Sequence record: KM407600
From: Shigella phage Shf125875
DNA: 64,000 bases
Direction: 5' to 3' (one strand)
This document shows positions 3,943-43,912 of the stretch, piece by piece; position 1 is the stretch's first letter; each line of letters starts with the position of its first letter. A program made the position numbers and the translations under genes. The notes under the pieces are model-generated. The model made no database searches, was not told the DNA's origin, and worked only from the letters and a program-made list of their open reading frames with translations.

Positions 3943-3972
3943 ATAGTATCACACGCCAAATACGTTGTAAAC
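3943..3972 (-). promoter_or_regulatory. early sigma70-type promoter (-35 GTTTACA, -10 TACTAT)
   Basis: Reverse complement reads GTTTACA, 17 nt spacer, TACTAT; upstream of ORF 3643..3912. Confidence 0.6.
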
Positions 3973-3978
3973 AATCTT

Positions 3979-3986
3979 TATAAATA
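3979..3986 (+). promoter_or_regulatory. late promoter for gene 24
   Basis: Exact TATAAATA 28 nt upstream of the 24 start. Confidence 0.7.
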
Positions 3987-4013
3987 ATCTATATCACATA
4001 AGGAAAAAATGCA

Positions 4014-5297
4014 ATGAGTAAAATCCAAAAATTATTGCGTGAATCTACAACGTCTACTAGCAACTCAATCGGTCGCCCAAATCTCGTTGCTTTGACTCGC
4101 GCTACGACTAAATTAATATATTCTGACATTGTAGCAACACAAAGAACTAATCAACCTGTTGCTGCTTTTTATGGTATCAAATATCTTAACCCAGATAACG
4201 AATTCACATTTAAAACTGGTGCTACTTATGCAGGCGAAGCTGGATATGTAGACCGAGAAAAAATTACTGAGCTCACAGAAGAATCAAAAGTCACACTAAA
4301 TAAAGGTGATTTTTTCAAATATAATAATATCGTCTATAAGGTGTTAGAAGATACACCATTTGCAGATATTCAAGAAAGTGATCTAGAATTAGCTCTTCAG
4401 ATTGCAGTCGTTCATTTAAAGGTACGGTTATTTTCAGATGCAGCGGTAACAAGCAAATTTGAAAGCTCTGATAGCGAAATTTCTGATGCAAGATTCCAGA
4501 TTAATAAATGGCAAACTTCAGTCAAATCTCGTAAACTTAAAACCGGCCTCACGGTTGAATTAGCGCAAGATTTGGAAGCGAATGGATTTGATGCCCCTAA
4601 CTTCTTAGAAGATTTGCTTGCTACTGAAATGGCTGATGAAATTAATAAAGATATTCTTCAGTCTTTAATTACTGTATCGAAACGTTATAAAGTTACTGGA
4701 ATTACTGACACCGGATTTATTGACTTGAGTTATGCATCAGCTCCAGAAGCAGGTCGTTCATTATATCGAATGGTGTGTGAAATGGTATCACACATTCAAA
4801 AAGAGACAACTTATACTGCAACGTTTTGTGTAGCCTCAGCTCGTGCAGCTGCTATTCTTGCTGCTTCCGGTTGGTTAAAACATAAGCCAGAAGATGACAA
4901 GTATCTTTCACAAAATGCTTATGGATTCTTGGCAAATGGATTACCTCTTTACTGCGATACCAACAGCCCGTTAGATTATGTTATTGTGGGTGTTGTAGAA
5001 AATCTCGGCGAAAAAGAGATTGTAGGTTCCATCTTTTATGCTCCATACACTGAAGGAATGGATTTAGACGACCCGGAACATGTCGGTGCATTTAAAGTTG
5101 TAGTTGATCCGGAAAGCTTACAACCGTCTATAGGTTTATTGGTTAGATATGCTTTATCAGCAAATCCTTACACAGTAGCAAAAGATGAAAAAGAAGCGAG
5201 AGTAATTGATGGCGGGGACATGGATAAAATGGCAGGACGTTCAGACTTGTCTGTTTTACTCGGTGTTAAATTGCCTAAAATTATTATAGATGAATAA
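4014..5297 (+). CDS. 24: capsid vertex protein gp24
   Basis: 427-aa ORF with late promoter upstream; gp23 paralogue position. Confidence 0.92.
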   Translation: MSKIQKLLRESTTSTSNSIGRPNLVALTRATTKLIYSDIVATQRTNQPVAAFYGIKYLNPDNEFTFKTGATYAGEAGYVDREKITELTEESKVTLNKGDFFKYNNIVYKVLEDTPFADIQESDLELALQIAVVHLKVRLFSDAAVTSKFESSDSEISDARFQINKWQTSVKSRKLKTGLTVELAQDLEANGFDAPNFLEDLLATEMADEINKDILQSLITVSKRYKVTGITDTGFIDLSYASAPEAGRSLYRMVCEMVSHIQKETTYTATFCVASARAAAILAASGWLKHKPEDDKYLSQNAYGFLANGLPLYCDTNSPLDYVIVGVVENLGEKEIVGSIFYAPYTEGMDLDDPEHVGAFKVVVDPESLQPSIGLLVRYALSANPYTVAKDEKEARVIDGGDMDKMAGRSDLSVLLGVKLPKIIIDE

Positions 5298-5300
5298 ACG

Positions 5301-5331
5301 AAAAAGGGACCGTAAGGTCCCTTTTTTTTTT
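5301..5331. terminator. bidirectional terminator between 24 (+) and rnlB (-)
   Basis: aaaaa-gggaccgtaaggtccc-tttttttttt; A-run and T-run flank the hairpin. Confidence 0.8.
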
Positions 5332-5332
5332 G

Positions 5333-6340
5333 TTATGATACTAATTCAATCCATGCAGGACGCAGAACATCTTGCACCATTCGGACTAATTCTTTCTTAA
5401 CAAGATTCGGATTATCAGATGATGTTAATACAATACCTTCACGAGAAGTTTCTTCCAGAATATCTTGGACAGTCAATCCCATCACTTTGCCAAAATCTTT
5501 TGGCGTTACAGTCCCAATCTTAGAAATAACATTATTAACACGATTTAATGTAACATAACAAGCTAGAACATCAAGCAAGTTTTTGTCAACTTCGGTTAAT
5601 GGAACCTGAGTTTTAATAGGCTTATCAGACTTTTTCTTTTCACTGAATTTAGAGTTCTTGCACTTAATCGCTACACGAGCACCGTTTGGCAGCCATTTAG
5701 GGAAACAAGGCTTCAGAACATAACCTTCTGCCGTATTATCGCCAATAACATTAGCATCAAATACACAATTATTTGCTTCTACAAGGTCTTCTGACGCAGT
5801 AGCATTATAAGCGGCTAAGACGGAATCAAGGTCATTTGGAATCATGATAAGAGAATCAAATGTTCCACGTCCAAGCATTGGTGCCATTTTAAAACCGAAT
5901 TCATTACAGAAATCTTGCATTTCGTAATCACTCATGTAATAAGTATCAGCACTTTCTGTGTTTATGATGATATCGAATACATAGAAATCTTTTTCACCAT
6001 AGTCAACACCTTTCTGGATTCCACCACCAGCGAATTCACCAAAGACTTGATATGACACCGGCACTGAAGTTGAAATACTGTCCATGACTTCTTGAACGGC
6101 TTTAATAGCTTTATCATACTTCTTGAGTACGATTTCATAACCATAAAAATCTTCTGCTAGAAGAATAGGGCCTGTGCGCTTGGCGCATGTGACGTTGTCA
6201 CGTTCAATTATTAACGAGAAGTTGGTCCCATGGATTTTCTCACGTGCTACCCAAACACCAGTAGTCAAACCATTAGTGTAGAGTTTTTCAATAAACTTAG
6301 AGTTGTAGTGGTTTTCAAGACTGCTGTATTTCTTAAACAT
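5333..6340 (-). CDS. rnlB: RNA ligase 2 (RnlB)
   Basis: 335-aa ORF with nucleotidyltransferase Lys motif (EKIHGTN); T4 position after 24. Confidence 0.85.
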
Positions 6341-27329: not shown

Positions 27330-27386
27330 CTTATTTCCTTGTTGTTTGACGATAGATTAATAATACCATACTATTCGTAAAGCATA

Positions 27387-27695
27387 TTACATAAGAAGCA
27401 AACGTTCGACCGGAGTACCATCAACCGAAATTACTTTATCAAGGCGGAAAGAACGCCACTGACCTAACTTGGTATCAAATGCTCGAACTGATTCACGAGG
27501 TTCAGAACGAACTTCTGTTGCCGGATTGTTATTTTCATATTTGACTTCAAGTTCATCACGCGAAGCAAACATAGTGCGTACCTCGCCGTTAGCCTTTTCA
27601 AATACAACACAATGAACGCCTACAGACAGAATAGTTTTAATACGTTCACGAAGAACCATAGTTTCTTGTTCAGTTAAAATCATATTATTCACCAC
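27387..27695 (-). CDS. hypothetical protein (31.1 position)
   Basis: 102-aa ORF. Confidence 0.5.
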   Translation of the reverse strand: MVNNMILTEQETMVLRERIKTILSVGVHCVVFEKANGEVRTMFASRDELEVKYENNNPATEVRSEPRESVRAFDTKLGQWRSFRLDKVISVDGTPVERLLLM

Positions 27696-28266
27696 AAAAG
27701 TTTCGGATTTGTTCCCAATTCAGAGAACGAAGATTATTACGAGAGTACTGAATTACTTCAATACCGGCTTGTTTTAGAATGTCTGCCCAATTTTCAGGAG
27801 ATCTGTCATATAATTCTGCGTATACAACCTTTTTAATACCTGACTGCGTAATAGCTTTAGTGCAATCAGGACACGGAGAAAGCGTCGTATATAACGTAGC
27901 ACCTTCAATAGAATTACCTTTACGAGCTGCAAACAAAATTGCGTTCAGTTCCGCATGGATTTCGTTATTAGCAGACCATGCACTATGAGCCGCTCGATGT
28001 TCTTTAGCCAAAACAAAATTATCTGCCCGTCCAAATGCTGTAGTGCCTTCTTTATGACCGGCAATGATGACAGGACTCGGCTTGTTCTTCAACCAACCTT
28101 GTTCAGTAGCATGGTCACAACAGTTTATACCACCTGCAGGTGAACCGTTATATCCAGTAGAGATAATGCGTCCATCTTTTTCAATGACGGCACCTACTTT
28201 CCATGAACAACATTTTGATTCTTGAGAAATCAAATAAGCAATTTGAAGATATGTGCTAGCTTTCAT
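27685..28266 (-). CDS. cd: dCMP deaminase
   Basis: 193-aa ORF with zinc-deaminase motifs (HAE..., PCPDC). Confidence 0.93.
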   Translation of the reverse strand: MKASTYLQIAYLISQESKCCSWKVGAVIEKDGRIISTGYNGSPAGGINCCDHATEQGWLKNKPSPVIIAGHKEGTTAFGRADNFVLAKEHRAAHSAWSANNEIHAELNAILFAARKGNSIEGATLYTTLSPCPDCTKAITQSGIKKVVYAELYDRSPENWADILKQAGIEVIQYSRNNLRSLNWEQIRNFCGE

Positions 28267-29258
28267 TATTGAACCTTATTAATATAAGTTAACAGCTCTT
28301 TAGTTTGTTCCCAACTGATGCACGCATCGGTAACGGAAACGCCATAGGACATATTATCAGAAATTTTTTGATTTCCTTCATGTAGGAACGATTCTATCAT
28401 AATTCCTTTGACCAAATCATTAGCTGCTAAATTTTTACCAATACCAATTTGATTGCTATAATGCCCATCAGCGTTTGCATGGCTACAGTCAACCATTACA
28501 TAATGATTCAGACCTACTGCCCTTGCTTTGTTAGAAGCTTCTTGAATATCAGAAGAATGATAGTTCGGGCCGTTGGTCCCGCCACGCAATACGATATGCG
28601 TATTCTGATTACCTTCAGCTTCAACAATGCCTACAGTACCATCGACGTCCATACCCATATACCGATGAGGCCAGGCGGCACTATACATCGCGTCTGTAGC
28701 TACTTTAATAGAACCATTGGTTGCGTTCTTGAAGCCTACGCACATCGGTAGACCTGAAGCAATTTCACGATGTGTCTGACTTTCAGTCGTACGGGCGCCA
28801 ATAGCAACCCATGAGAAAATACCAGAAAGATACTTAATCGTGAATGGGTCTAATACTTCAGTTGCTAATGGAAGTCCCATACGTAGAAGTTTACGACACA
28901 ATGTTCGTGCAACTATAAGACCGTGGTTCATATCAAAACTTCCGTCAAGATATGGATCATTTACAAGACCTTTCCAACCTACGGTAGTTCGAGGCTTTTC
29001 AAAATAAACGCGCATCACTAACAGAACATTAGGAAGACGAGTTTGAAGTTCAGCCAGACGTTTGCCGTATTCAACAGCAGCAATAGGGTCATGAATTGAA
29101 CAAGGACCTACAACAATAAGTTTGCGTGGGTCTTCACCGTTCATAATCGAATTAACTTGTTCGCGATGAGAAGCCACTTGTGATGCGTAAGCTTCCGACA
29201 AAGGAATAATCTCAGCCAGTTCTTTTGGAGAAATAAGTTTTCCGACGACAGGTAACAT
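28266..29258 (-). CDS. 3-deoxy-D-arabino-heptulosonate-7-phosphate (DAHP) synthase, class I AroG/F/H-like
   Basis: 330-aa ORF with DAHP synthase motifs GPCSIHD, RVYFEKPRTTVGWKGL, GARTTESQ, FKN, CSHAN, ESFLHEGNQ, TDACI; Cys, His, Glu and Asp metal ligands all present. Confidence 0.88.
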   Translation of the reverse strand: MLPVVGKLISPKELAEIIPLSEAYASQVASHREQVNSIMNGEDPRKLIVVGPCSIHDPIAAVEYGKRLAELQTRLPNVLLVMRVYFEKPRTTVGWKGLVNDPYLDGSFDMNHGLIVARTLCRKLLRMGLPLATEVLDPFTIKYLSGIFSWVAIGARTTESQTHREIASGLPMCVGFKNATNGSIKVATDAMYSAAWPHRYMGMDVDGTVGIVEAEGNQNTHIVLRGGTNGPNYHSSDIQEASNKARAVGLNHYVMVDCSHANADGHYSNQIGIGKNLAANDLVKGIMIESFLHEGNQKISDNMSYGVSVTDACISWEQTKELLTYINKVQ

Positions 29259-29378
29259 AACAATCCTTAGGAGATATAAACAGATTCTGATTCAACAATA
29301 CCTTTAACCGGATTAGACAGGCTAAGTTGGTAGTGCTCAGATTTATGACCATTCTCGATAGTAATGAGATAGCTCTCA

Positions 29379-29615
29379 TTATAGTGTTCCATATACTCGA
29401 GTTGCTTCAACAAGACCATCACTGCCTAATTTAAGATTAGTAATTTGGTCACCATCTTTAGGATTAACGATTATGAGAAAAGAACGTGGAGATTCTTGAA
29501 TAACTCGTAATGTTGCATCTTGGAAACGTTCAGACACTTTATTGATGAGTGCTTGAGCAAATTCTTTTACTTTAATCTGAAATTCGTGTACTGTAATTGG
29601 GTTTTCACTTAGCAT
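29379..29615 (-). CDS. hypothetical early protein (cd.x position)
   Basis: 78-aa ORF with early promoter at 29644-29673. Confidence 0.45.
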   Translation of the reverse strand: MLSENPITVHEFQIKVKEFAQALINKVSERFQDATLRVIQESPRSFLIIVNPKDGDQITNLKLGSDGLVEATRVYGTL

Positions 29616-29643: not shown

Positions 29644-29673
29644 ATAGTATCACAACTCCACCATGTTGTAAAT
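29644..29673 (-). promoter_or_regulatory. early promoter
   Basis: ATTTAC, 18 nt, TACTAT; upstream of ORF 29379..29615. Confidence 0.5.

Positions 29674-30354: not shown

Positions 30355-30355
<1 letters not shown>
30164..30355 (-). CDS. hypothetical protein (cd.x position)
   Basis: 63-aa ORF overlapping its neighbours. Confidence 0.4.
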
Positions 30356-31441
<1,086 letters not shown>

Positions 31442-34823: not shown

Positions 34824-36002
34824 TTAGAAATATTTTTTGTATGAATTGATTACATTTTGGTCTACATCATTATCAATTTGTGCGACAAGATAAGAACTGA
34901 TTTCAACTTCCTGAGGAGCTGCTTGAACTAAATCAGAGTTCAGATATTCACGAATCCAAGGATACGGATGCTTGGTCGGAGCATCAGTGATTGGGCATGG
35001 CAAACCGCACTGTTTCATACGAGACACAGTCAAGTAATCAACAAAAGCACACATACTCTGCGTATTGATACCTGGACATGTACCATCTTTAAAGAGGTGT
35101 GCAGCCCATTCCTTCTCTTGACTATTTACTTCCATAAAGATATCTACTGCTTCTTGCTCACACTCTTTAGCAATTTGAACCCATTCATCCCCATCAACAC
35201 CAAGTTGGAGCTGTCGAATAATGTACTGAGTGCCTTTAAGGTGGAGTTGTTCGTCACGAGCGATGAACTTCATAATCTTTGCATTACCTTCCATGATTTC
35301 CATGTTCTTATGGAAGTTGAAAGTACATGCAAAAGATACATAAAAACGAATAGCTTCTAAGGCGTTAATAACGTGTAAGCAGAGATAAAGAGACTTCATT
35401 AATGCACGTTTACATTCTTCCACATGCATAAGACTATTTGAATATGCATCCAAATCATATTCATTTTCGGAAAAACATTTAAAAATTTCTTTAGCATTTT
35501 CCCATTCACGTGTTTTAACTAGAACATCATCATAATATTTGCCGATTGATTCCGCACGTTTCATAATTGCTTCATCTAATACAATCTCATCAAATACCTT
35601 CGATGGATCAGTATAAAGATTTCGCATGATATGAGTATATGAACGAGAGTGAATGGTTTCACTGAATGTCCATGTAGCAACCCATGTATCTAATGAAGGG
35701 TCAGAAATCAGTGCCATAAGTACCGCAGATGGGGCCCTGCCTTGGATAGAATCTAATAATGATTGATACTTAAGATTGTTTGTAAAGATATCCTGTTGAA
35801 ACTGAGGAAGCTTATTGAACTGCGCAGAGTCCAACATCAAGTTTACCTCTTCCGGGCGCCAAAAAAACGACAATTGCTTTTCAATAAGCTCTTCAAAAAC
35901 TTTATGGCGTTGAATATCGTAACGCGCAAGGCCAAGACCGGAACCAAAGAACATTGGTTCATTCAAAACATCAACTTTTTGGGTATTAAAAACTGTACTC
36001 AT
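34824..36002 (-). CDS. nrdB: ribonucleotide reductase small subunit NrdB (no intron)
   Basis: 392-aa continuous ORF. Confidence 0.95.
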   Translation of the reverse strand: MSTVFNTQKVDVLNEPMFFGSGLGLARYDIQRHKVFEELIEKQLSFFWRPEEVNLMLDSAQFNKLPQFQQDIFTNNLKYQSLLDSIQGRAPSAVLMALISDPSLDTWVATWTFSETIHSRSYTHIMRNLYTDPSKVFDEIVLDEAIMKRAESIGKYYDDVLVKTREWENAKEIFKCFSENEYDLDAYSNSLMHVEECKRALMKSLYLCLHVINALEAIRFYVSFACTFNFHKNMEIMEGNAKIMKFIARDEQLHLKGTQYIIRQLQLGVDGDEWVQIAKECEQEAVDIFMEVNSQEKEWAAHLFKDGTCPGINTQSMCAFVDYLTVSRMKQCGLPCPITDAPTKHPYPWIREYLNSDLVQAAPQEVEISSYLVAQIDNDVDQNVINSYKKYF

Positions 36003-36052: not shown

Positions 36053-38308
36053 TTAAAGCTTACAAGCGGAGCAATCTTCAGCTTTAGGCGTTTCTAACTC
36101 ATAGTCATCTGTACCAGAACCATCTCGAGTGTTATGATAGTAAAGGTTCTTACCACCAAAGTACCAGAAGTAAAGCAAGTCATCAAGCATTACAGACATT
36201 GGCACTTTGCCTTTCTCAAAGACTGAAGGGTCGTAGTATGTATTAGCAGAAGCAGATTGGCACACCCATTTTAACATGATAACAACTTGTGTCAGATAAG
36301 GCTTATTACCTTTCTTAGCGAGTTTCCACGCATAGTCATAAAGACCCATGTTGTGTTCAATATTAGGAACTACTTGACGGAAATTACCTTCTTTAGATTC
36401 TTTAATACTTACTGGGCCACGAGGTGGTTCAATACCATTTGTGCTATTTGAGACCTGGCTGCTTGATTCGCATGGCATGAGTGCAGACAACGTTGAGTTA
36501 CGAATTCCATGTTCTTTGAGTTCAGCTCGAAGTTCTTCCCAGTCACAGACGTAGTTTGGGGCTGCGATTTGGTCAATCTTTTTATTGTACCAGTCGATAG
36601 GTAATTCGCCTCGAGACCATTTAGTGTCTGAATAATACTCGCAACGTCCTTTTTCTTTGGCGAGTTTGATTGATGCTTTGATAAGGCCATATTGCAATCT
36701 CTCAAACAATTCATGAGTCAAATCGTTAGCGTCTTCATATGAAGCAAAGTTAGAAGCTAACCATGCAGCATAGTTCGTAACACCAATACCAAGATTACGA
36801 CGCTTTTTAGCTTTTAAAGCTTCTGGAACCGGATAGTCTTGATAGTCTAACAGGTTATCAAGTGCACGTACTTGTACTTCAGCAAGTTCATTAATTTTAT
36901 CTTGGTCTTGCCAATCAAATTTATCTAACACGAATGCAGATAATGTGCATAAACCAATTTCAGCATCAGGACCATTCACATCATTAGTTGGAATAGCGAT
37001 TTCACAACATAAGTTACTCTGTCGAATTGGAGCTTTTTCACGAATAAATGGAGTGTAGTTGTTCGTGTTATCAACGAATTGTGGATAAATTCGAGCAGTA
37101 CCAGAGCGTTCAGTCATGAACAATTCAAAGAGTTCTAGTGCTTTGATTCTTTTCTTTCTGATTGTTGGGTCTTTTTCAGCTTTCTCATAAAGCTCACGGA
37201 ATTTATCTTGATCTTCAAAGAACGAGTAGTATAGTTCGCCTGACATTTCGTGAGGGCTAAATAAAGTAATATAATCATTTTTACCAAGGCGTTCCATCAT
37301 AAGGTCATTAATCTGAATTCCGTAGTCCATATGTCTAATACGGTTTTCATCCACGCCTTTGTTATTTTTCAGAACCAACAGGTTCTCTACTTCTAAGTGC
37401 CACATCGGATAATACGCTGTAGCAGCACCACCACGAATACCACCTTGAGAACAAGATTTTACTGCAGTTTGGAAATGTTTCCAGAATGGAATAACACCCG
37501 TATGTCGAACTTCACCCATACCAATCTTAGAACCTTCTGCACGAAGCATACCAACGTTGATACCGATACCAGCTCGTTTAGAAATATATTCAATAATTGA
37601 TGCTGAAGTTTTGTTAATAGATTTTAACGAATCACCGGCTTCAATAACTACACAACTAGAGAACTGGCGAGTTGGAGTACGAGCACCTGCCATAATTGGG
37701 GTTGGCAATGAAACTTGATGAGTAGAAACGGCATCATAAAAACGAATAATATGTTTCAAACGGTCATGAGTTTCGTCTTGATGTAAGGCCATGCCAATAG
37801 CCATGATAGCAAACTGTGGAGTTTCATAAATCTTCCCAGTTGTTTTATCTTTAACTAGATATTTTTCTTTAAGCTGCATAGCACCAGCATAAGTCAGGTC
37901 AAAGTCTCGTTCATGTTTAATCTGTGAATCGAGATAAATGATTTCTTCTGCCGAATATTGAGACAACAGCTCAGGGTCGTATTTGCCTTCATTAACACAA
38001 TAAGAAATATGGTCGATAAAAGCAGGCGGTTCAAACTGCCCATACACATCTTTACGAAGTGCAAACATTAATCCTTTAGCGGCAACATATTGATAGTCAG
38101 GTTCTTCGACAGAAATCAAGTTAGCTGCAACTTTAATACAAATCTTCTGGATATCTTTGGTGCTCATCCCATCAACCAGATGAGTCTTAATTTCTTCATA
38201 CAATTCGTATGGGTCGATTTGTGTTCCTTCACACTGCCAAGTTAAGACTTGAATAATTTTCTGTGCATCAAAATTTTGGGATACACCACTGCTCTTAGTT
38301 ACTTGCAT
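36053..38308 (-). CDS. nrdA: ribonucleotide reductase large subunit NrdA
   Basis: 751-aa ORF with C-terminal redox cysteines. Confidence 0.95.
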   Translation of the reverse strand: MQVTKSSGVSQNFDAQKIIQVLTWQCEGTQIDPYELYEEIKTHLVDGMSTKDIQKICIKVAANLISVEEPDYQYVAAKGLMFALRKDVYGQFEPPAFIDHISYCVNEGKYDPELLSQYSAEEIIYLDSQIKHERDFDLTYAGAMQLKEKYLVKDKTTGKIYETPQFAIMAIGMALHQDETHDRLKHIIRFYDAVSTHQVSLPTPIMAGARTPTRQFSSCVVIEAGDSLKSINKTSASIIEYISKRAGIGINVGMLRAEGSKIGMGEVRHTGVIPFWKHFQTAVKSCSQGGIRGGAATAYYPMWHLEVENLLVLKNNKGVDENRIRHMDYGIQINDLMMERLGKNDYITLFSPHEMSGELYYSFFEDQDKFRELYEKAEKDPTIRKKRIKALELFELFMTERSGTARIYPQFVDNTNNYTPFIREKAPIRQSNLCCEIAIPTNDVNGPDAEIGLCTLSAFVLDKFDWQDQDKINELAEVQVRALDNLLDYQDYPVPEALKAKKRRNLGIGVTNYAAWLASNFASYEDANDLTHELFERLQYGLIKASIKLAKEKGRCEYYSDTKWSRGELPIDWYNKKIDQIAAPNYVCDWEELRAELKEHGIRNSTLSALMPCESSSQVSNSTNGIEPPRGPVSIKESKEGNFRQVVPNIEHNMGLYDYAWKLAKKGNKPYLTQVVIMLKWVCQSASANTYYDPSVFEKGKVPMSVMLDDLLYFWYFGGKNLYYHNTRDGSGTDDYELETPKAEDCSACKL

Positions 38309-38650: not shown

Positions 38651-39511
38651 TTATACCGCCATTTTAGCTTTGATAGTTGGATGAGATTCGTAATTTTTAA
38701 GAACGAAATCAGAATGTGTCATCGTTCCAGTAACCCAGTCCATTTGGATTTTTGTAGGCCAATTCTCAAAATTACTAGGCCAATTAATTTCAAGAGAACA
38801 CAACTCTTTAGGTTCACGACGAAGAACTTCTTTGCATTGTTCTACATGATTGCTGTAGATATGCGTGTTGCCGCCTGAGAACACTAAATCACCTGGGATA
38901 AGGTTACACATCTTCGCTACAATATGCGTCAAGGCAGCGTATGAGGCAATGTTGAACGGCAGGCCCAAGAAAACATCTACACTGCGTTGATACCATTGTA
39001 AATCAAGATGCCCATTACGCACATTGAACTGATAGAACATGTGGCAAGGAGGAAGAGCCATTTGATTTATTTCGGCCGGATTCCAGGCAGAAACAATTTG
39101 ACGACGATCAGTTGGTAATTTTTTAATACTGTTGATTGTTTCAACTAATTGGTCCACACCACCGAAATCACGCCATTGTTTACCATATATAGGACCAAGT
39201 TCGCCGCTATGATATCCAAGGTCTTTTGCCTGATTTTCATAGTTGTCGTCCCAAATAGTTTTACCTTCAATTAGACTACCATGAGTACGAAGACGTAATT
39301 CATTAACATTAGTAGAACCGGACATGAACCACAATAACTCGGCAATACAAGCTTTCCATGCTAATTTCTTAGTTGTTACTGCAGGGAATCCTTTAGTCAG
39401 GTCCCAACGTAATTTAGTTCCGAACAGAGCAATTGTTCCTGTGCCTGTACGGTCGTCTGTTTCGTAACCGTTTTCAAGGATATTTTTAATTAAATCTTGG
39501 TATTGTTTCAT
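38651..39511 (-). CDS. td: thymidylate synthase Td (no intron)
   Basis: 286-aa continuous ORF with the active-site Cys motif (PPCH). Confidence 0.95.
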   Translation of the reverse strand: MKQYQDLIKNILENGYETDDRTGTGTIALFGTKLRWDLTKGFPAVTTKKLAWKACIAELLWFMSGSTNVNELRLRTHGSLIEGKTIWDDNYENQAKDLGYHSGELGPIYGKQWRDFGGVDQLVETINSIKKLPTDRRQIVSAWNPAEINQMALPPCHMFYQFNVRNGHLDLQWYQRSVDVFLGLPFNIASYAALTHIVAKMCNLIPGDLVFSGGNTHIYSNHVEQCKEVLRREPKELCSLEINWPSNFENWPTKIQMDWVTGTMTHSDFVLKNYESHPTIKAKMAV

Positions 39512-39524
39512 TTAGCACCTATAA

Positions 39525-40482
<958 letters not shown>

Positions 40483-42582: not shown

Positions 42583-43236
42583 TTAATACTTACATGATTT
42601 GATTGTTTCTATGAACAATTTCTTAGCAGCATTTCCGTCGATTTGAAGTATTTTTCGATATGCCTTTAATTTGGTAGAATAATTTTGCCAGACTAAATTG
42701 TCGGTGAGTTCGTCGTGCTTATCTATAATATTCAAGAATGAATCCAACAACAAGAAGGTTTCAAATGAAATTATATTGCTTTGTAGCAATTTAAATATGT
42801 AGCTCGACTGAACTTTATTATTATAATCAAATATCTCTTGAAGCGCACTAACTTCCACTTTCTTACTGAAATAGTAGATGTTACGTACATCTTCAGCAAA
42901 CGTCTCCTTGGCTTGTTTGAGACGTCCAATATATTCCCTATAGAAAACTAATGCATCAGCGTCTGATATCTCACCAATCCATGCATCTTGGTTAGCAACT
43001 AAGTTACTGATGAATATCAAGGTGAGTTCCTTTAACTTATATTTCTCTGCTAGTTTCTCAAAGAAATATTTATCTCGGCGTTTTTGATACGCATTATCCG
43101 AAACACGCATGCACCAGTTATATTTGATTACGTCATACCGACCACCAAAATGGTTTTTGCACATCAAGTATAGTTTATATACCGATTTTCCATTAATATA
43201 ACGTTCTCCATCAGGAGGCATGCGTATTTTAATCAT
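42583..43236 (-). CDS. 59: helicase loader gp59
   Basis: 217-aa ORF recognised as T4 gp59-like. Confidence 0.93.
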   Translation of the reverse strand: MIKIRMPPDGERYINGKSVYKLYLMCKNHFGGRYDVIKYNWCMRVSDNAYQKRRDKYFFEKLAEKYKLKELTLIFISNLVANQDAWIGEISDADALVFYREYIGRLKQAKETFAEDVRNIYYFSKKVEVSALQEIFDYNNKVQSSYIFKLLQSNIISFETFLLLDSFLNIIDKHDELTDNLVWQNYSTKLKAYRKILQIDGNAAKKLFIETIKSCKY

Positions 43237-43912
43237 ATTTCCATCCGGACCATTTTGAAGATTTAAGTCTATATGTAACTAAAGACGCAGAAATATTAAA
43301 AACATTTGAAACTTCTTTACACGAGGCGTATTTTATACCATCAATAATTATAGGTTTTTGTTTTTTAATAGTTCTTTCTTTAGAATGCGGCTTTGAATTT
43401 GCTATTCTAAGAGCTTCTTTGGTTGAATCGGGCATCGGCTTATTCGTTTTTCGCCCTTTTCGGACTTTGCTCAAGGCCAATTTGTGAGCTTCAGATAGTT
43501 TCTTACCCTTATTAGGTGACGATATTTTCTTTTCTAGTCTTGTTTTAGATACTTTAGCCTTAGTCTCTTCAGATCTAGGTTTACCTAATTTAGAAAGTGA
43601 AATAGCCCTTTTAGCTTCATCACTTTGTTTTTTACCAGGACCACCTTTACCACCGGGAACTAAGTTATAAGTATCATCTCGCAAAACAAAATCTTCGTTA
43701 ACCAATTCTGCTTCTTTTTTATAGGCGTCCTTGTCATTATCATATTCATAAAGAATTTCGGTATAAAAATTTTTTAGTCCATATTTAGCTTTGGCCGCTA
43801 ATATAGCGCGGCCTGATCCAATATACCAATCTTTCTCTTTATGTTTTTTGTGTACGCCTATATAAATTTTACCATTTATTTTATTGGTAGTTTTATACAC
43901 AACGTATTTCAT
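43229..43912 (-). CDS. free-standing GIY-YIG homing endonuclease (Seg / I-TevI family)
   Basis: 227 aa; GIY-YIG motifs (YVVYKTTNKINGKIYIGV, YIGSG), NUMOD3-like repeats, basic C-terminal DNA-binding region. Confidence 0.8.
   Translation of the reverse strand: MKYVVYKTTNKINGKIYIGVHKKHKEKDWYIGSGRAILAAKAKYGLKNFYTEILYEYDNDKDAYKKEAELVNEDFVLRDDTYNLVPGGKGGPGKKQSDEAKRAISLSKLGKPRSEETKAKVSKTRLEKKISSPNKGKKLSEAHKLALSKVRKGRKTNKPMPDSTKEALRIANSKPHSKERTIKKQKPIIIDGIKYASCKEVSNVFNISASLVTYRLKSSKWSGWKYD

Follow-up and report, generated by a model that had tools for sequence, protein, structure and literature searches.

A DAHP synthase of T4-like phages with a complete active site and a remodelled inhibitor pocket

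DAHP synthase (3-deoxy-7-phosphoheptulonate synthase, abbreviated here as DAHPS) is the entry enzyme of the aromatic amino acid (shikimate) pathway. In the Escherichia coli isozymes AroG and AroF, the residues on which feedback inhibition depends have been described: AroG P150L is completely feedback-resistant, S180F, F209A and F209S were reported to be feedback-resistant, and the side chains of Q151/Q152 and S180/S181 touch the main chain of the inhibitor (PMC9529685), while deletion of Ile11 yields a feedback-resistant AroF (PMC10729320). Homologs in phages have been recorded as well. Many phage records already annotate the gene, as phospho-2-dehydro-3-deoxyheptonate aldolase, aroF or DAHP synthase. 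A 2025 paper, which goes no further than a hypothesis, counts the homolog of Kanagawavirus KLB31 among amino acid auxiliary metabolic genes (PMC11845039). The existence of the gene and its annotation are already known and are not news; the question of interest is which kind of DAHP synthase it encodes. We analysed a stretch of 64,000 nucleotides (referred to as the window) of Shigella phage Shf125875 (sequence record KM407600), a Mosigvirus of the RB69 group of T-even phages, in which the gene lies on the minus strand between the dCMP deaminase gene (cd) and pseT. The sequence evidence leads us to propose that its product is probably an early-expressed, feedback-insensitive (or differently regulated) DAHPS that has long been resident in T4-like phages. 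Our additions to the existing annotation are a rewired and constrained allosteric site in a phage lineage, a precise deletion of the gene in RB69, and evidence from that phage that rules out a part for the gene in the arabinosylation of DNA.

The gene and its translation signal are located as follows:

28266..29258, minus strand: type Iα DAHP synthase, 330 amino acids, assigned by its open reading frame (ORF), profile matches, a match to the AroF structure and an AlphaFold2 model
29264..29268, minus strand: Shine-Dalgarno sequence AAGGA, 5 bases before the ATG at 29258, read from the sequence

The ORF opens at the first start codon past an upstream stop, and no upstream extension is possible. 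An initial annotation of this DNA had described it as a 330-residue minus-strand ORF of the AroF/G/H type and had proposed searching it against the DAHP_synth_1 profile, aligning its allosteric-site residues and using BLASTP to distinguish a host from a phage origin. The profile search gave a strong match (Pfam PF00793, E=5.2e-75, 252.3 bits with a cut-off of 25.5), and the assignment to the AroF/G/H type was borne out by the aroFGH equivalog model TIGR00034 of NCBIfam (427.7 bits, cut-off 173.2) and by PRK12755 (455.1 bits, cut-off 343); the protein scores under the cut-offs of the isozyme-specific AroG and AroH models of NCBIfam. Its top match among solved structures is the Tyr-sensitive AroF of E. 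coli (PDB 6agm, E=5e-105), where residues 8-327 align with AroF 17-344. The AlphaFold2 model, for which 36 sequences were aligned, reaches a predicted local distance difference test score (pLDDT) of 91.4 and a predicted template-modelling score (pTM) of 0.91, and its confidence is low in the mobile KPRT loop (residues 89-95) and nowhere else. The model is a (β/α)8 barrel with the Iα-specific β6a/β6b hairpin (strands 198-203 and 209-214), and in Foldseek it superposes on the structures of AroG and of Neisseria meningitidis DAH7PS (1kfl, 8e0u, 4uc5) with a template-modelling (TM) score of 0.96 and a root-mean-square deviation of 1.3 Å, at 45-47% sequence identity.

To examine single residues we used an alignment of 131 sequences, which includes 31 proteins of the phage clade and 97 bacterial homologs. 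The motifs that the initial annotation had quoted (GPCSIHD, RVYFEKPRTTVGWKGL, GARTTESQ, CSHAN, ESFLHEGNQ, TDACI) are all present in the translation, and the Cys, His, Glu and Asp that it had taken for metal ligands align, as C53, H260, E289 and D311, with C61, H268, E302 and D326 of AroG. All these ligands are invariant in the 31 clade proteins, and so are the residues that bind phosphoenolpyruvate (PEP; AroG R92, K97, G163-A164-R165, K186 and R234) and the KPRT motif that binds erythrose-4-phosphate (E4P). Altogether, 14 of 14 metal, PEP and E4P residues (AroG numbering C61, R92, K97, P98, R99, T100, G163, A164, R165, K186, R234, H268, E302 and D326) are unchanged in 31 of 31 phage-clade proteins. 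The protein is a type Iα DAHP synthase with a complete active site, and we expect it to be a catalytically competent, metal-dependent enzyme that converts PEP and E4P to DAHP and inorganic phosphate.

Against this unchanged catalytic machinery we set the positions at which the phage enzymes depart as a group from the bacterial ones. We scanned all 330 residues, with no prior choice of region, for positions occupied by one residue in at least 90% of the phage clade and by another residue in at least 85% of the bacteria. Only seven clade-specific fixed substitutions were found:

28818..28850, minus strand: pocket segment D137-I147 (DPFTIKYLSGI), identified by the alignment and the clade scan, which carries four of them: I141 (AroG P150), K142 (AroG Q151), G146 (AroG D155) and I147 (AroG L156)
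28746..28748, minus strand: codon of P171 (AroG S180, AroF S181), Pro in 31/31 of the phage clade and Ser in 94/97 bacteria
28659..28661, minus strand: codon of Y200 (AroG F209), Tyr in 31/31 of the phage clade and Phe in 94/97 bacteria
A214 (AroG T223), the remaining substitution

Four of the seven fall among the 15 literature-defined pocket positions present (hypergeometric P=9e-5), and a fifth replaces AroG D155, a salt-bridge aspartate tied to the inhibitor site (PMC9529685). At the positions that form the canonical pocket (AroG P150, Q151, S180 and F209), 30-31 of the 31 clade members have I, K, P and Y, and 89-95 of the 97 bacterial proteins have P, Q, S and F. The glycine found at the AroG S211 position in Tyr-type isozymes is retained. 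Thus the alignment of allosteric-site residues revealed changes such as P150 to I, Q151 to K, S180 to P and F209 to Y.

The N-terminus differs too. The Shf125875 enzyme has 52 residues before the catalytic Cys, compared with 59-61 in AroF, AroG and AroH of E. coli, and the ranges are 48-52 across the phage clade and 58-95 in the bacterial homologs. Leu2 of the phage protein aligns with AroF Ile11; the full N-terminal extension is missing, and D6/D7 of AroG and N7/N8 of AroF have no counterpart. In the AroG-Phe structure, Asp6 and Asp7 bind the amino group of the inhibitor from the partner subunit. The initial annotation had noted that the N-terminal regulatory region differs from that of E. 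coli AroG and had surmised altered allosteric control; the region indeed proved to be about nine residues shorter, which could free the enzyme from host feedback control.

Compared with AroF (6agm/6agl), the phage enzyme shares 51% identity across the barrel, the metal, PEP and E4P residues, the DCSH motif, the Tyr-type glycine and the β6a/β6b hairpin. It is 26 residues shorter, owing to the loss of some nine N-terminal residues, two small internal deletions and a shorter C-terminus, and its substitutions P151 to I, Q152 to K, D156 to G, S181 to P and F210 to Y (AroF numbering) are all at or beside the Tyr-binding site. Its pocket and N-terminus differ in the same way from those of AroG and the N. 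meningitidis enzyme. The engineered feedback-resistant AroG variants (P150L, S180F, F209A/S and Q151 variants) carry single changes, whereas the phage enzyme is altered at all these positions together.

These features suggest a mechanism in which the active site was left untouched and the allosteric site was turned into a different fixed state. The phage enzyme lacks the first nine or so residues, which in E. coli are supplied by the partner subunit to close the inhibitor pocket, and the residues that hold the main chain of the inhibitor are replaced (AroG Q151 to K, S180 to P, P150 to I, D155 to G and F209 to Y). Most likely, then, the enzyme would no longer be switched off by Tyr, Phe or Trp. 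It would also escape repression by TyrR and TrpR, because its gene is on the phage genome, and the infected cell may keep sending carbon into the shikimate/chorismate pathway at any level of aromatic amino acids.

The same comparison with AroF could be read more simply, namely that the phage supplies a Tyr-sensitive, host-AroF-like enzyme that merely adds DAHPS after the shut-off of host transcription, with the pocket changes as neutral lineage markers. AroF is indeed the closest E. coli isozyme (51%), the Tyr-type glycine at AroG S211 is kept, and D146, P148 (both in AroF numbering), L179 and V221 are conserved. However, the substitutions hit residues at which a single mutation abolishes inhibition of AroG or AroF (P150L, S180F, Q151, F209 and the deletion of Ile11), and chance is a very unlikely cause of their clustering in the pocket (P=9e-5). 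We consider this explanation quite improbable.

If the enzyme is feedback-insensitive, as we propose, either of two processes may benefit: the synthesis of a phage proteome rich in Tyr and Phe, or that of chorismate-derived cofactors such as folate, on which the enzymes encoded by the neighbouring td, frd and cd depend. In the phage ORFs of the window, Phe, Tyr and Trp together make up 9.65% of the residues (Tyr 4.09%), in comparison to 7.50% (Tyr 2.55%) when the method was applied to 50 kb of E. coli sequence, and aromatic amino acids for the phage proteome are a plausible benefit. Chorismate-derived cofactors, especially folate, are also plausible, and fit the logic better, because insensitivity matters when aromatic amino acids are abundant, which is when the host throttles its chorismate supply. 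By this reading the phage lineage appears to do what metabolic engineers do, who change the feedback site and leave catalysis intact in order to raise the flux through the aromatic pathway. Confirmation would make it a clear and testable example of a virulent phage of enterobacteria that overrides an allosteric checkpoint of its host in the biosynthesis of amino acids and cofactors, and the enzyme might serve strain engineering as a feedback-resistant DAHPS that nature has already optimised.

To learn whether the gene was taken from a host recently, we examined its distribution, phylogeny and composition. The identical protein (100%) is found in phage phiC120 (NC_055718) and in dozens of other phages, and tblastn located the gene in 211 phage records, 138 of them at 95% identity or more (Mosigvirus) and 47 at 60-80%. 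Seven genera have the same gene order, pseT ... DAHPS - cd - gp31 - rIII: Mosigvirus, Kanagawavirus (CIP9), Marfavirus (F48), Winklervirus (X20), Kagamiyamavirus (EcS1), Bragavirus (PM2) and Gualtarvirus (PSTRCR_127). The DAHPS proteins of these other Straboviridae, with those of Kanagawavirus KLB31 and PEi20, belong to the same clade, share the locus beside cd, the signature I-K-G-P-Y-G-A and the short N-terminus, and differ in being 56-77% identical to the Shf125875 protein. In some of the genera a homing endonuclease, or one or two small ORFs, are inserted nearby. Pairwise identities of DAHPS among the genera correlate with those of cd (r=0.77), pseT (0.80) and gp31 (0.88). In a neighbour-joining tree of 130 sequences the 31 phage-clade proteins were monophyletic in 183 of 200 bootstraps; the nearest bacterial sequences are as far off as the deepest splits within the clade, being about 50-55% identical and originating from scattered phyla. 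Identities to the E. coli isozymes are 51% (AroF), 47% (AroG) and 43% (AroH). The G+C content at third codon positions (GC3) is 0.30, like that of the adjoining phage genes, and 0.50-0.57 in E. coli aroF, aroG and aroH. The ratio of nonsynonymous to synonymous substitution rates (dN/dS) of 0.15-0.24 is similar to the ratios of cd and pseT, although these values are approximate, since dS (1.2-2.9) is near saturation. We therefore rejected a recent capture from the host, and the question that the initial annotation had left to BLASTP was answered in favour of a phage lineage. As a gene for a host-type enzyme that has T4 core genes on either side in seven genera, is under selection and has phage-like GC3, it fits the description of an auxiliary metabolic gene in these respects, and the phylogenetic and compositional data mark it as an old, vertically inherited gene of Straboviridae under purifying selection.

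Database names can obscure such a distribution. The representative of a 98%-identical cluster is named '3-deoxy-7-phosphoheptulonate synthase [Escherichia coli]' by NCBI; it is located on a contig of 170,875 bp that is presumably a phage deposited under a bacterial name. Conversely, we discarded as phage examples the records named 'Acinetobacter phage MD-2021a' (CAKLQH020000043.1; H96), where argC, clpS, clpA and fadH surround aroF and which are bacterial chromosome fragments. Fragments under this name inflate the apparent phage counts of host genes.

The locus in the window is consistent with expression early in infection. The genes and signals around DAHPS, in the direction of transcription, are:

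39862-40479, minus strand: frd, dihydrofolate reductase
38651-39511, minus strand: td
36053-38308, minus strand: nrdA
34824-36002, minus strand: nrdB
30355..31254, minus strand: pseT polynucleotide kinase/phosphatase, the upstream border of the interval (PF25109, E=2e-58; AAA_33)
29644..29672, minus strand: predicted sigma-70 or T4-early-like promoter TTTACA-17-TGaTACTAT, a consensus match upstream of cd.2-DAHPS-cd that is also present in RB69
29379..29615, minus strand: cd.2 homolog (DUF7320), the upstream co-directional neighbour of DAHPS (PF24005, E=1.5e-35; cd.2 in the RB69 annotation)
29259..29378, minus strand: 120-nt spacer between the cd.2 homolog and DAHPS, which like DAHPS has no counterpart in RB69
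27685..28266, minus strand: dCMP deaminase, cd (ORF; PF00383, E=5e-26)

The minus-strand run continues between nrdB and pseT with denA, rnlA and alc. After pseT come four small ORFs, homologous to cd.4, ORF227c, cd.3 and cd.2 of RB69, then the spacer and DAHPS, and after cd a gp31.1-like WYL_2 protein and gp31. The stop codon of DAHPS and the ATG of cd share one base (junction ...CAATAATGAAAGC...). This agrees with the initial annotation, which had placed the gene in a co-directional run with dCMP deaminase and the nucleotide-metabolism genes; frd, td, nrdA, nrdB and cd are indeed all encoded on the minus strand. Considering the Shine-Dalgarno sequence, the overlap with cd, the early-type promoter match and the cluster of frd, td, nrdA and nrdB on the same strand, DAHPS is probably transcribed early, together with cd and the genes for nucleotide precursors.

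Consensus and terminator scans yielded nothing convincing as a dedicated promoter or terminator adjoining DAHPS. The scan for MotA boxes gave no match directly upstream of the gene, with MotA-box-like matches inside pseT and upstream of gp31, and the terminator search found no minus-strand terminator beside DAHPS. For the window as a whole, the T4 middle-promoter-like pattern TGCTTNA-N10-14-TANNNT occurs 16 times over the two strands together, where 6.7 are expected and none of 100 shuffles reaches 16; the matches are mainly on the minus strand, e.g., 30662..30638 inside pseT and 27384..27360 upstream of gp31.

Several minor features of the locus were recorded. In the region 29259-29392 (minus strand), the 120-nt spacer upstream of DAHPS opens with ATGAGAGCTA, which nearly duplicates the sequence ATGAAAGCTA at the start of cd. 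It includes an unannotated small ORF of 55 amino acids (29212..29379, MRAIS...) and the 41-residue ATG-initiated part (MEHYNES...) of ORF 29267..29422, the start of which overlaps the stop of the cd.2 homolog; the two small ORFs overlap each other. In phiC120 this region carries no annotation, and the spacer segment may be the scar of the original insertion or may hold real ORFs. The gp31.1-like ORF directly downstream of cd (27387-27695, minus strand) contains a WYL_2 Sm-like SH3 barrel domain (E=9e-10). Among the relatives, Winklervirus, Kagamiyamavirus and Bragavirus have one or two small ORFs between DAHPS and cd, and the 1-nt overlap of these genes is therefore not universal. Small ORFs or insertions near DAHPS lie at 5998-6339 in L007, 4983-5318 in L012, 5957-6516 and 3606-4322 in L008, and 2090-2806 in L011 (our locus numbers), and Proteus phage PM2 and Providencia phage PSTRCR_127 have a SegD-type homing endonuclease between pseT and DAHPS.

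Comparison of the cd-pseT interval among close relatives revealed that RB69 is a natural deletion of the gene. In a megablast search the interval is covered completely (100% of the query) in other Mosigvirus records and to 69%, in two pieces, in RB69. The missing part is delimited by a direct repeat:

29370..29382, minus strand: repeat copy 1, ATAATGAGAGCTA, located where the cd.2 homolog stops, with a distance of 1113 bp to copy 2
28257..28269, minus strand: repeat copy 2, ATAATGAAAGCTA, at the DAHPS stop and cd start, found by a pattern scan of the 64-kb window

Two copies of the 13-mer ATAATGARAGCTA, and no more, are present in the window, where 0.01 occurrences are expected, and RB69 has a single copy, at the cd.2/cd junction. 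RB69 lacks exactly the 1113-bp segment between the repeat copies, that is, the spacer and DAHPS; in the alignment its junction reads ...GGAACACTATAATGAAAGCTAGC..., and in its annotation cd.2 abuts cd. Seven genera have the gene at this position, so the difference is most likely a loss of the spacer and DAHPS from RB69 by recombination between the 13-nt repeats. From this deletion it follows that DAHPS is dispensable for laboratory growth and would be an accessory fitness gene rather than an essential one. RB69 and the wild relatives that keep the 1.1-kb segment form a near-isogenic system for measuring the benefit of the gene. T4 has five small ORFs in the interval, in line with the statement of the initial annotation that only small ORFs are found there; a search at E≤1 detected no DAHPS remnant in T4 or RB69, and the interval of Shf125875 contains nothing that corresponds to T4 cd.1.

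The loss in RB69 could suggest that the gene is a dispensable or decaying passenger with no role in infection, as RB69 is still a vigorous laboratory phage and T4-type phages live without the gene. We find this hardly credible: 138 Mosigvirus records and six other genera have an uninterrupted reading frame, the catalytic residues do not vary, the codon composition is phage-like, and dN/dS stays at 0.15-0.24.

RB69 is informative also with regard to the substrate. The initial annotation had raised the alternative that the enzyme joins PEP to another sugar phosphate, e.g., arabinose-5-phosphate, for modification of DNA or of a surface glycan. The fold is common to DAHPS and 3-deoxy-D-manno-octulosonate 8-phosphate (KDO8P) synthase (KdsA), the two enzymes belong to the same TIM-barrel superfamily and use the same PEP-aldol chemistry, and E. 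coli DAHPS takes five-carbon phosphates weakly. In addition, the DNA of Mosigvirus carries arabinosyl-hydroxymethylcytosine (ara-hmC; PMC6024577). Yet the KPRT motif for E4P, which is of the DAHPS type, and all the DAHPS-specific residues are invariant; no KdsA model matched the protein, and NCBIfam at E≤0.01 gave DAHPS families only, with the aroFGH equivalog far above its cut-off. Moreover, ara-hmC was discovered in RB69 itself, and the same paper puts the candidate arabinose genes between the DNA polymerase gene and uvsX (PMC6024577). RB69 makes the modified base with no DAHPS gene, so the gene is not required for this modification, and a role in it was rejected. The gene is found also in six other genera. 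A KDO8P-like reaction of this kind is very improbable.

A number of points weigh against the reading that we favour, an early-expressed enzyme that aromatic amino acids no longer inhibit. Activity and insensitivity are both deduced from sequence alone: the literature searched, which was that outside subscription-only papers, contained one genomic mention of a phage DAHP synthase and no biochemical or genetic work on one. Sigma-70-like matches, such as the one upstream of cd.2, are no commoner in the region than in shuffled sequences (10 found, 12.5 expected). RB69 grows well without the gene, and T4, T2 and T6 never carry it. The other six enzymes of the shikimate pathway must come from the host. 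Insensitivity would make a difference only in cells well supplied with aromatic amino acids, where these are not the limiting factor, and this weakens the simple version in which the phage gains more amino acids. Finally, among 20 non-redundant clade members (63% mean identity), 13 of the 15 pocket positions are at least 90% conserved, in comparison to 118 of 301 positions elsewhere (p=0.0003). A site that was merely abolished would be expected to drift, and the conserved pocket may therefore still bind something.

The conservation of the pocket raises the alternative of an active DAHPS whose pocket was rebuilt for another effector, so that entry into the shikimate pathway is tuned to the needs of the phage. 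Examples of such an effector are an acidic metabolite with no alpha-amino group (chorismate, prephenate or an arylpyruvate) and an infection-specific metabolite. All seven genera have the same new residues in the pocket, which is conserved more strongly than the remainder of the protein (p=0.0003), the change of Gln to Lys puts a positive charge at the site of the inhibitor carboxylate, the Asp6/Asp7 segment for the amino group is lost, and a viral contig described below has a partly similar pocket (S180 to P, F209 to Y, Q151 to N and D155 to H). On the other hand, no ligand is known, and the conservation could equally be structural, because the pocket segments flank the PEP-binding G163-R165 and K186. 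We regard this alternative as somewhat unlikely. A related proposal is that the I-K-G-P-Y pocket and the short N-terminus form a new allosteric site for another signal of infection, for which an intermediate of the chorismate branch or a metabolite tied to the neighbouring nucleotide and folate enzymes would be candidates, or that the phage subunits mix with host AroF or AroG and cripple the inhibitor sites that two subunits share. This is unlikely in our view; if true, it would be a virus-evolved rewiring of allosteric control in a central biosynthetic enzyme.

Finally, we compared the phage clade with DAHPS of other viruses. The IMG/VR proteins, from giant-virus metagenome-assembled genomes (MAGs) and other contigs, are of type Iα with intact catalytic residues; those from outside Straboviridae are 38-50% identical to the phage enzyme and fall outside its clade. 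The phage-clade signature is absent from the approximately 70 IMG/VR loci that are not of Straboviridae, mostly giant-virus MAGs, and nearly all of these have longer N-termini. Exactly PQDSFGT is found in the pockets of 53 of 80 IMG/VR loci, and ten more differ from it at one or two positions. Dozens of giant-virus MAG contigs (L032-L095) carry a type Iα DAHPS of 38-48% identity, mostly with canonical pockets and normal or extended N-termini, and these may be viral or cellular contamination. The one notable exception, and the closest to the Straboviridae clade, is the enzyme of a large uncultivated virus, contig IMGVR_UViG_3300028829_003504 (L028, 262 kb; 3956-5005; also found in L029), which shares S180 to P and F209 to Y with the clade, although support for a sister relationship is weak (84 of 200 bootstraps). 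This protein has 349 amino acids and the pocket P-N-H-P-Y-G-S. Its gene is flanked by those for a thymidylate kinase and a type IB topoisomerase, and a NUDIX gene lies further upstream. The unrelated and smaller Aeromonas phage HJ05 (79 kb; 4899-6062) encodes a type Iα DAHPS of 387 amino acids with 37% identity that likewise falls outside the Straboviridae clade and has intact catalytic residues, a long N-terminus and another non-canonical pocket (T-A-H-M-P-V-A at AroG 148/150/151/175/180/209/211), surrounded by genes that are all annotated as hypothetical. Elsewhere in the window, a 227-residue ORF between gp59 and RNase H (43229-43912, minus strand) has an I-TevI-type DNA-binding domain and is probably a mobile homing endonuclease.

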